A stretch of DNA of 64,000 nt from Dehalococcoidia bacterium (GCA_965221385.1 OZ244885.1:1088643-1152642), one strand, 5' to 3'. Positions 44,310-44,417 are shown, numbered from the stretch's first letter. A program made the numbers and translations. Notes: a model not told the origin generated them from the letters alone.

Positions 44310-44417
44310 GGCTGGCTGGCTGGCTGGCTGGCTGGCTGGCTGGCTGGCTGGCTGGCTGGCTGGCTGGCTGGCTGGCTGGCTGGCTGGCTGGCTGGCTGGC
44401 TGGCTGGCTGGCTGGCT
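44310..44417 (-). repeat. (AGCC)27 perfect tetranucleotide microsatellite (GGCT on the plus strand) within the methyltransferase gene
   Basis: Counted directly: 27 units, 108 nt, translated as (SQPA)9. Confidence 0.95.

Follow-up and report, generated by a model that had tools for sequence, protein, structure and literature searches.

The gene studied here carries a long, perfect tetranucleotide array inside the coding sequence of a DNA methylase, which raises the question of what products such a gene can make and whether the array chooses among them. The earlier note had read the array as a selector among three C-terminal reading frames. In the 64,000-nucleotide stretch of DNA analysed (the window), it proves to be one of two frame-breaking tracts in a gene for a PglX/YeeA-like N6-adenine methylase (ArmB-like), part of a three-gene operon related to ARMADA and DISARM, and we hold with good confidence that this gene is a two-tract contingency (phase-variable) switch.

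The array occupies positions 44310..44417, reading (GGCT)27 on the plus strand and (AGCC)27 on the minus strand, which codes for the methylase. Direct reading and Tandem Repeats Finder agree on it, the latter giving period 4, 27.0 copies and 100% matches and reporting it as the one perfect tetranucleotide array in the window; a (GGCT)6 probe has 22 overlapping matches in the window and 0 in 100 dinucleotide-preserving shuffles. On the coding strand the tract is translated as (SQPA)9 within the open reading frame (ORF) at 44223..45074, and it contains 0 stop codons in all three frames. Unit count, peptide and open frames are thus as the earlier note had described them, and the three continuations that it derived are equally sound. 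With 27 units, the tract frame stops 28 codons on, after the tail LRTLAALARSSLSGKSPTRPTSEREFPQ, at the stop codon 44223..44225. The frame of the ORF at 43439..44122 is free of stops all the way back to the tract, and in-silico editing joins the ORF at 44223..45074 to it when the number of units, n, satisfies n mod 3 = 2. At n mod 3 = 1 the tail is about 70 codons long (69-70) and ends at the TGA 44098..44100. A PADLOC match of the tract ORF to a Type III methyltransferase (MTase_III) spans only the SQPA repeat and was discarded as a low-complexity artefact.

What the earlier note overlooked is a second frame break further upstream in the gene, at a run of nine guanines (G9 on the coding minus strand, C9 on the plus strand; 44914..44922, by direct reading) that lies between the frame of the catalytic ORF and that of the tract ORF. 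We refer to this position as site 1 and to that of the AGCC array as site 2; both (AGCC)27 and G9 are long perfect repeats inside an ORF with a unit length indivisible by 3. The catalytic ORF (1059 or 1070 aa, 44704..47883 or 44704..47916) is in a different frame from the tract ORF, which it overlaps, and ends at 44704, upstream of the AGCC tract. The methylase start is likely the ATG at 47883, which overlaps the stop codon of the upstream helicase gene (ATGA), the ORF itself extending to a GTG at 47916. Because translation of the assembled sequence stops at 44704, the protein made from the methylase start is the same whatever the AGCC unit number. The array does open onto three C-terminal frames as claimed, but with the G9 break upstream of it, it selects nothing in the product as assembled.

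The gene can be divided into three pieces, all on the minus strand. The first (44704..47883, protein P0001) comprises the N-terminal and catalytic domains, with motif I (DPASGSGHF) and motif IV (NPPW), matches Eco57I and N6_Mtase in Pfam and both DrmMI (4e-80) and type IIG in PADLOC, and ends in REL and a stop codon. The second (44226..44913, part of the ORF at 44223..45074) follows the tract frame through the first copy of a segment that we call S1, the stretch YLPLYEAK..FDHRF..PRYWV, predicted to be the middle of the target-recognition domain, and (SQPA)9 to the 28-codon tail. The third (43439..44309) runs open from the tract as far as its stop codon at 43439..43441 and contains a linker in which the first copy (copy a) of another segment, S2, is out of frame, then S2 copies b and c and a conserved helical C-terminal domain (LANLNS..KQLP..LELTY..GEYRTQRYV).

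S1 (NPW[GS]VRFQxMFxMSxxSxxFR) is found 3' of G9 in two diverged copies that share about 65% DNA identity, lie about 125 nt apart and are in different frames. Copy 1 (NPWSVRFQSMFHMSSASGLFRTRTELEAQGYRLEG, 44805..44909, minus strand) is in the frame that leads to the AGCC tract, and only G8 or G11 allows it to be read; copy 2 (44707..44784, minus strand) is in the catalytic-ORF frame, is followed by the stop codon 44704..44706 and forms the C-terminus of the assembled product. S2 (...R.I...TNERT...P..G.G...) is found 3' of the AGCC tract in three copies on the minus strand, spaced by 107 and 120 nt. Copy a (GIGSQLALRKITNPTNERTGISAMIASVGLSDSGTTIS, 44182..44295) is in the frame reached at n mod 3 = 1, with the stop TGA 44098..44100; copy b (HFGWVIVFRDIASPTNERTAICMAIPGVAVSNKAPLIR, 44075..44188) is in the C-terminal (full-length) frame; and copy c (SSSWLQAIRGITNATNERTVVTENLPTGGVGNSAPVLA, 43955..44068) is in the C-terminal frame too, with the helical C-terminal domain directly after it.

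Products were simulated from the methylase start by in-silico length edits at both tracts. With G9, as assembled, and any AGCC number, the product is 1070 aa long and ends just past S1 copy 2, and with G7 or G10, again with any AGCC number, it is 1034-1035 aa long. With G8 or G11 the AGCC number comes into play, yielding the full length of 1490 aa at n mod 3 = 2, about 1270 aa, ending past S2 copy a, at n mod 3 = 1, and 1230 aa at n mod 3 = 0. The assembled allele (G9, n = 27) is off at both tracts, and restoring the enzyme needs a change at each. Outside the two tracts, the 4.4-kb gene is free of stops and frameshifts, and the combination G8/(AGCC)26 gives 1490 aa with every conserved motif.

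The site 1 region of the window has a peculiarity of its own. Aligned with two related loci (L001 and L081), it shows several indels, net +1, between S1 copy 2 and YLPLYEAK, and it is copy 1, not copy 2, that shares its frame with the rest of the protein, unlike in those two loci. Since the net +1 is spread over several indels and one relative, P0060, ends likewise just after S1 copy 2, we take the REL ending of this copy as a feature of the lineage and reject a 1-nt assembly error. P0060 is the only relative that shares the site-1 arrangement of the window. The full-length path of the window would include 31 aa read out of frame, along with a segment duplicated in part, and as such might give no active enzyme, though P0060 has the same arrangement.

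To place the tracts on a protein fold, we used an AlphaFold model of the repeat-free homolog P0062 (pLDDT 77, and 80-96 in the C-terminal part). In this model the catalytic domain is followed by a beta-rich domain and then by an all-helical domain. S2 corresponds to residues 942-975, the final three strands of the beta-rich domain, site 2 to a loop at residues 931-941, and site 1 to about residue 825, just before S1. The best fold matches of the model are BrxX/PglX, CamA, M.BseCI, MmeI and M.TaqI, with 9ewz and 8c45 (BrxX-like fold) as the top Foldseek matches at E 3e-12 and a TM-score of only ~0.3. BrxX has the domain order N-terminal, methylase, target-recognition and C-terminal (PMC11842806). 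By this domain assignment, which draws on a single model plus fold matches of low TM-score (0.3), the AGCC tract is predicted to sit in the loop that separates the PRYWV strand from S2 within the target-recognition domain. The loop tolerates insertions, since three repeat-free loci (L157, L011 and L021) have a helical insert of ~100 aa there. We infer that an alternative frame at site 2 that reads its own S2 copy would give a complete target-recognition domain without the C-terminal domain, and that the alternative frames at site 1 would give a protein without the target-recognition domain. A PDB sequence search with the full-length homolog P0004 returned no match. A model of the short isoform P0069, built with 21 close sequences, reached a pLDDT of 46.7 and was discarded, the strand-strand-strand pattern that it displays over copy a being unreliable.

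The genes on either side of the methylase overlap or adjoin it in one operon. Upstream lies an SNF2/BrxHII/DrmD/DpdE-like helicase (ArmA-like; 47880..50711, minus strand), identified by domain and defence-library matches, with a match to DrmD at 2e-92 and a stronger one to DpdE at 3e-186. Downstream, the same kinds of match identify a YprA-like DEAD helicase with an MZB (DUF1998) domain (ArmC-like; 38340..43430, minus strand, start probably ATG 43430), a single protein of 1696 aa with DEAD, Helicase_C and MZB domains whose best matches are to Druantia DruE (1e-96), against only 2e-13 for DrmA. The earlier designation of the gene as a DISARM-type methyltransferase holds in that it encodes an N6-adenine methylase in a DISARM-like operon, where a DrmMI-type methylase accompanies a DrmD-type SNF2 helicase as in DISARM class 1. 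DISARM proper is nevertheless the poorer fit: no PLD domain, as in the DrmC/PLD nuclease, was found in the operon or the flanking ORFs scanned. Where class 1 has a core of DrmA and a separate DrmB (DUF1998), the operon has the single, fused, DruE-like protein with its weaker match to DrmA. The DISARM-related ARMADA system (PMC12458937) is a better fit, its gene set of a BrxHII-like SNF2 helicase, a PglX-like methylase and a YprA-like helicase nearest to DruE being present in this one operon. The order helicase, methylase, YprA seen here is also that of some Type I ARMADA systems and of Type II (Bell et al. 2025, PMC12458937). The fourth gene of Type II, a GajB-like helicase with a RelE-like N-terminus, is absent from the window; position 38340 marks the end of the operon, and beyond it the next real genes lie on the opposite strand. 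Hence, the operon resembles ARMADA Type I with reversed gene order. The methylase also has a BrxX-like domain order and fold by Foldseek (TM ~0.3), and no BREX partner (brxA/B/C, pglZ, brxL) adjoins it, its neighbours being the SNF2 and YprA helicases and an AbiE pair. By Pfam, PADLOC and the BrxX/PglX fold, it is neither a Type III Mod nor a Type I HsdM/HsdS of the kind found in phasevarions.

A comparison of the locus across related genomes lends strong backing to the slipped-strand reading of the earlier note. A protein search with the reconstructed full-length sequence returned 3965 hits, and full-length relatives of 1300-1420 aa share 63-66% identity with this query. Many close relatives are truncated at the same two places, often just past peptide repeats of period 4, 5, 7 or 8 or past poly-Pro, and about two-thirds of the close homologs in the protein database are flagged 'partial'. 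A scan of species-representative genomes yielded 80 loci, many of them on complete long-read chromosomes, the closest (55-69% identity) being from Dehalococcoidia and SAR202, Candidatus Spongiisociaceae (Acidimicrobiia) and Binatota bins; a metagenome scan found only more distant relatives (<=57% identity) and added 5 repeat-bearing loci. In total, at least 25 related loci have unrelated repeats at these two sites, with units of 1, 2, 4, 5, 7 or 8 nt and never a multiple of 3, and their hosts are Dehalococcoidia, sponge-associated Acidimicrobiia and Binatota. At site 2, at an equal offset past PRYWV, the relatives carry (AGAC)15, (AGAC)6, (GACC)6, (CAGA)21, (CAGA)25, (CAGA)30 or G51, and likewise (CCAG)4, (GACAC)36, two 8-mers in succession, (AGACTACA)7 and (TCGGAAGG)11, (AGGCTGG)6, (AG)12, (GA)18, (ACAGGGCC)8, (GACAG)10 and (AGCCG)9. 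Site 1 carries the homopolymers G12 (L001), G8 (L081), C17 (L033), C12 (L036) and C10 (L057), as well as the longer units (GACAG)5 (L035), (GCAG)7 (L089) and (AGGC)10+17 (L090). More distant relatives have no repeat, and their S1 and S2 are single-copy. Heptamer repeats in cyanobacterial homologs, considered as further frame switches, were rejected because they overlap the stop codon.

The assemblies capture these genes in several states. L006, L009 (with its (CAGA)30), L015 and L081 are full length, L033 and L035 are in the full-length state at site 1, short forms that contain S2 are found in L007, L008, L010 and L018, and the shortest tails are those of L002 and L013; site 1 is off in the window, in L001 and in L036. 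Tract lengths also differ within clusters of 90% protein identity, where all three frames are occupied. In one such cluster, a poly-C tract is read as PP, PPP, PPPP or PPPPP and leads into three downstream frames, with products of 1139-1163 or 1344 aa, and in another, an (AGAC)n tract leads to products of 1140, 1182 and 1407-1411 aa. These clusters consist of whole proteins from metagenome bins, not of clonal lineages, and the length and frame variation within them is the comparative signature of a contingency locus, as read from their sequences. Near-identical proteins that differ in tract length and frame, and a homologous site with unrelated long repeats in many species, give the slippage reading its strong backing. 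Some members of the family are decaying, given the extra lesions in three of them: in L001, two of the three frames meet a stop directly behind the G tract, which puts full length beyond the reach of slippage alone; L003 is disrupted downstream of its tract; and L014 shows one more frameshift.

The repeats are tightly linked to the duplicated segments. Multiple copies of S1 or S2 are found in 19 of the 144 loci analysed, every one of which has a repeat at that site, and the remaining 122 repeat-free loci have single copies. Three further pattern matches for extra copies in repeat-free loci were weak or contained stops, and apparent extra copies in the repeat-free loci L026, L123, L124 and L157 were dismissed for the same reasons. 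Every locus with a repeat, and none without, has 2-3 diverged tandem copies of the conserved segment that comes next, and these are in different frames in all but one pair. In L007, L008, L010 and L081 there are three S2 copies in three frames, 110-113 nt apart, and only the frame of the last copy enters the C-terminal domain. Likewise, L033, L035, L036 and L057 have three S1 copies in three frames after the site 1 repeat, with tails of 28-39 aa or 52-58 aa, or a continuing frame. We know of no description of such a tight linkage between a repeat and frame-staggered segment copies.

The staggered copies show signs of constraint in their own frames. The frame of S2 copy a is free of stops in 8 of 8 loci that share only ~55% DNA identity; the full-length frame is open as well, and each locus has 1-3 stops in the third frame. 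After masking of the anchoring motif, the differences at codon positions 1/2/3 are 0.30/0.26/0.44 for copy a, read in its alternative frame, against 0.33/0.24/0.43 for copy b and 0.32/0.21/0.47 for copy c. The position that varies least in copy a corresponds to position 3 of the full-length frame, and the constraint therefore acts on copy a's own reading. In a second subclade, the alternative-frame copy b has differences of 0.29/0.24/0.47 by codon position, and copy a shows no codon-position bias (n=4). In each class of copy, orthologues are closer (0.37-0.51) than paralogues (0.14-0.29), for which reason we regard the copies as old paralogues and reject gene conversion as the cause of their conservation. 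The open frames and coding-like evolution of the alternative-frame copies make it probable that the truncated products are real isoforms. For the n mod 3 = 1 frame, this means that the ~70-codon tail predicted in the earlier note is there but is not merely a dead end, as it encodes a conserved spare S2 copy that evolves as coding sequence.

We suggest the following mechanism. Replication slippage would alter the length of a tract and with it the reading frame, and we infer from the comparison of loci that this is how switching occurs in the window strain. Tract 1 (G9) lies at the junction of the catalytic domain and the predicted target-recognition domain, and tract 2, (AGCC)27, in a loop near the end of the latter. 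Behind each tract come diverged tandem copies of the structural segment that is next in line, mostly in different frames, so that the alternative frames end the protein at a completed domain and not in random sequence. The alternative-frame products are probably folded isoforms, without a C-terminal domain in the case of site 2 and without a target-recognition domain in that of site 1. In the three-copy cases, any tract length would give a methylase that ends at a completed domain, be it full or devoid of either the C-terminal or the target-recognition domain; for the subclade of the window, this would hold for two of the three site 2 frames. Full length presumably corresponds to defence being on, because the NPPW catalytic motif of the ARMADA methylase (ArmB) is required for defence in E. 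coli (PMC12458937). The isoforms could have different roles, for example keeping self-methylation or complex assembly while defence is off, and an isoform of this kind would make switching back on safe. That the truncated forms are functional isoforms seems to us close to, though short of, an even chance. Only tentatively, and at somewhat lower confidence, do we propose that a tract and its frame-staggered copies form an evolved three-state isoform switch, as opposed to an on/off switch, that originated independently at the two sites and moves between phyla on mobile elements.

The gene could alternatively be a plain ON/OFF contingency switch, its truncated products functionless and its staggered copies mere leftovers of tandem duplication near unstable repeats. 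We regard this as a possible account, of clearly less than even probability. Site 1 truncations would lack the entire predicted target-recognition domain and hence specific DNA recognition, one of the three site 2 frames in the window's subclade stops before any S2 copy, and copy a in the second subclade is the one without codon-position bias, all of which such a switch would accommodate. It is harder to reconcile with alternative-frame copies that stay open across ~55%-identical loci, with an excess of third-position differences in their own frame and orthologue-specific signatures, with a layout that arose at two separate sites, and with segment copies that are found only where a repeat is present. 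A usable product in every frame would also suit slippage by RNA polymerase or the ribosome, which would yield all isoforms in each cell without heritable switching, the tracts setting the isoform ratio. Transcriptional slippage is established in bacteria for homopolymers of at least 9 bases, and such runs occur both in the window (G9) and in relatives (G12, C17, G51). Most tracts, however, have units of 4-8 nt, for which it is not established, and length differences between near-identical genes are seen at the DNA level, making this improbable as the main explanation; the mechanisms are not mutually exclusive, and transcriptional slippage on the homopolymers may add non-heritable mixing to a heritable switch.

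The two interruptions of the assembled gene, like the extra lesions in L001, L003 and L014, would be expected of a decaying pseudogene with repeats as neutral expansions in dead sequence. This is very unlikely, as the three pieces are long, intact and conserved, one change per tract restores 1490 aa, tracts of 30 or 36 units in relatives keep the gene in frame or lead into conserved alternative frames, the unit length is never a multiple of 3, and the flanking operon genes are intact. Least credible of all is an artefact of assembly or consensus calling, be it in the tract, in its unit number or in the length of G9: repeats and homopolymers are error-prone, and three short-read relatives (L004, L031, L089) end inside the tract, but the array is a perfect 108 nt within unique sequence, and equivalent tracts recur in many independent assemblies, complete long-read chromosomes included. 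The counts of 27 units and nine guanines could still represent a single allele among several in the population, as phase variation predicts.

The contingency switch that we favour has precedents for its principle. The tetranucleotide repeat of modA, a Type III mod gene, is likewise AGCC, and the mod genes of phasevarions in Haemophilus, Neisseria and others share with the present gene a tetranucleotide repeat in an N6-adenine methylase ORF, where slippage shifts the frame. They differ from it in that the enzyme here is a PglX/YeeA-like gamma-class methylase with a BrxX-matching fold and not a Type III Mod, that two tracts lie in the C-terminal half together with spare segment copies in alternative frames, and that the hosts are uncultured Chloroflexota and sponge-associated bacteria, with a conjugative-type element; the likeness covers the repeat switch, not the regulon. 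Tract length varies between strains in phase-variable Type III mod genes (PMC5909438). The nearest relative by protein fold is the PglX of Streptomyces coelicolor, a defence methylase of a BREX-type system in which a homopolymeric G tract switches phage resistance on and off at 10^-2 to 10^-4 (PMC4365076). Pgl has a single G tract that acts as a simple ON/OFF switch and its partners are those of BREX/Pgl, compared with the SNF2 and YprA helicases here, and neither a multi-species hotspot with changing repeat units nor staggered duplicate segments has been described for it.

A further parallel is found in NgoAV and other repeat-bearing Type I hsdS genes, where a repeat between two structural modules leads to a full-length or a truncated product, the truncated form is functional, and the outcome is a switch of form and not of ON/OFF state (PMC7383803). 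The hsdS half-subunit works by dimerising and needs no duplicated segment, whereas the putative isoforms of the present gene carry segment copies of their own. In Helicobacter, homopolymeric tracts near the 3' part of genes lead to alternative C-termini (PMC2823697), and these tails are not reported as paralogous copies of the normal downstream segment. The words 'phase' and 'frameshift' are absent from the ARMADA paper (PMC12458937), and our literature search turned up no account of repeat tracts in the methylases of DISARM or ARMADA, nor in defence genes of Chloroflexota. The principle of slippage is known; what sets the present case apart is the enzyme family and defence system, the presence of two tracts, the hotspot with its changing units, the staggered paralogous copies and the hosts.

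Most of what is known of repeat-driven phase variation in defence methylases comes from host-adapted pathogens and the pglX of Streptomyces. Here, it appears to be conserved in an ARMADA/DISARM-related system of uncultured Chloroflexota, sponge-associated Acidimicrobiia and Binatota, beside conjugation genes, which suggests bet-hedging of phage defence, or of gene-transfer barriers, in communities of environmental and symbiotic bacteria. With its two tracts, a single gene provides a graded range of products. Should the truncated forms prove functional, this would be a gene architecture in which frameshifts yield defined isoforms in place of junk, and a possible answer to how methylation-based defence can be toggled off and on without self-restriction. 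The frequency of such repeat genes is underestimated, because annotation pipelines split or truncate them.

The conjugative-element context proposed in the earlier note is reasonable, given that the gene adjoins, within the window, a set of conjugation-type genes at 11.6-26 kb that includes a serine recombinase, a relaxase-like protein, a coupling protein, a VirB4/TraC-like ATPase and a TrbL/VirB6 homolog. The window also contains an AbiEi/AbiEii pair, a tRNA-Lys gene at 53933..54008 and a drop in GC content at ~38 kb.

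In addition to the AGCC tract, the minus-strand N6-adenine methylase gene contains a run of nine C residues (G9 on the coding strand; window 44914..44922), positioned where the frame of the catalytic ORF gives way to that of the ORF holding the AGCC repeat. This run is probably a second slippage tract of the gene. The peptide encoded by the AGCC tract is also the cause of a false family assignment, as the match to the PADLOC Type III methyltransferase model is limited to the (SQPA)n peptide (protein residues 216-245 of the ORF at window 44226..45074). A match to this peptide alone suggests that the seed sequences of the model themselves include translated AGCC-type tracts.

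In the homologous methylase loci of other genomes, the loop between the PRYWV motif and the conserved segment S2, which holds the repeats in other relatives, contains a helical insert of ~100 amino acids in the repeat-free L157, L011, and L021; this loop is a general hotspot for insertions. The cyanobacterial homologs L073, L154, L058, and L153 carry a heptamer repeat, (TAATTCG)3-5, about 965-1017 nt past the NPNT motif. We considered this repeat as a frame switch and rejected it, since it lies across the methylase stop codon and each of its units contains a TAA.

Assemblies and annotations systematically break or cut short such repeat-bearing loci: in L004, L031, and L089, the short-read contigs stop within the homologous repeat, which at the contig end of L004 is a run of 51 G residues (3673..3723). 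In L003, the sequence following a (CAGA)25 tract (about 11323..11422 and downstream) bears no relation to the methylase C-terminus, so that the tract may have been the site of a rearrangement or a deletion.

Versions of the methylase gene with repeats were found in three phyla, including Candidatus Spongiisociaceae of the Actinomycetota (L008 and L010) and Binatota (L031). This distribution suggests that the cassette as a whole has been transferred horizontally, probably between bacteria associated with sponges.

The window also contains a conjugation and integration module (11617..26339), comprising a large serine recombinase (11617..13233), a relaxase-like protein (15789..17432), a TrwB-like coupling protein (17429..20089), a VirB4/TraC-like ATPase (20140..22335), and TrbL/VirB6 (24699..26339). 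The GC content, 0.64-0.68 in this region, drops to 0.57-0.60 from ~38 kb onward. Beside the TrbL-like gene, G7 and C7 runs lie 8 nt apart (26411..26432), a pair that could potentially form a strong hairpin.

Convergent with the defense operon, a plus-strand DUF6094 methyltransferase gene is followed by one for a 776-residue ResIII/Helicase_C protein (34569..38230); this pair may represent cargo of the element or an anti-restriction module. Immediately upstream of the operon, on the plus strand, are ORFs for an AbiEi-like antitoxin and an AbiEii toxin (50739..52531), which as listed share ~350 nt, so their starts are provisional. A tRNA-Lys (UUU) gene near the defense island (53933..54008, minus strand) is a possible integration site, and a plus-strand gene for a protein with a Schlafen group 3-like helicase domain (3149..4939; E = 7e-70) is possibly a further defense gene. 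At the end of a DUF1538 gene, or just past it, a 16-nt unit is repeated four times in tandem with 82% matches (57704..57767).
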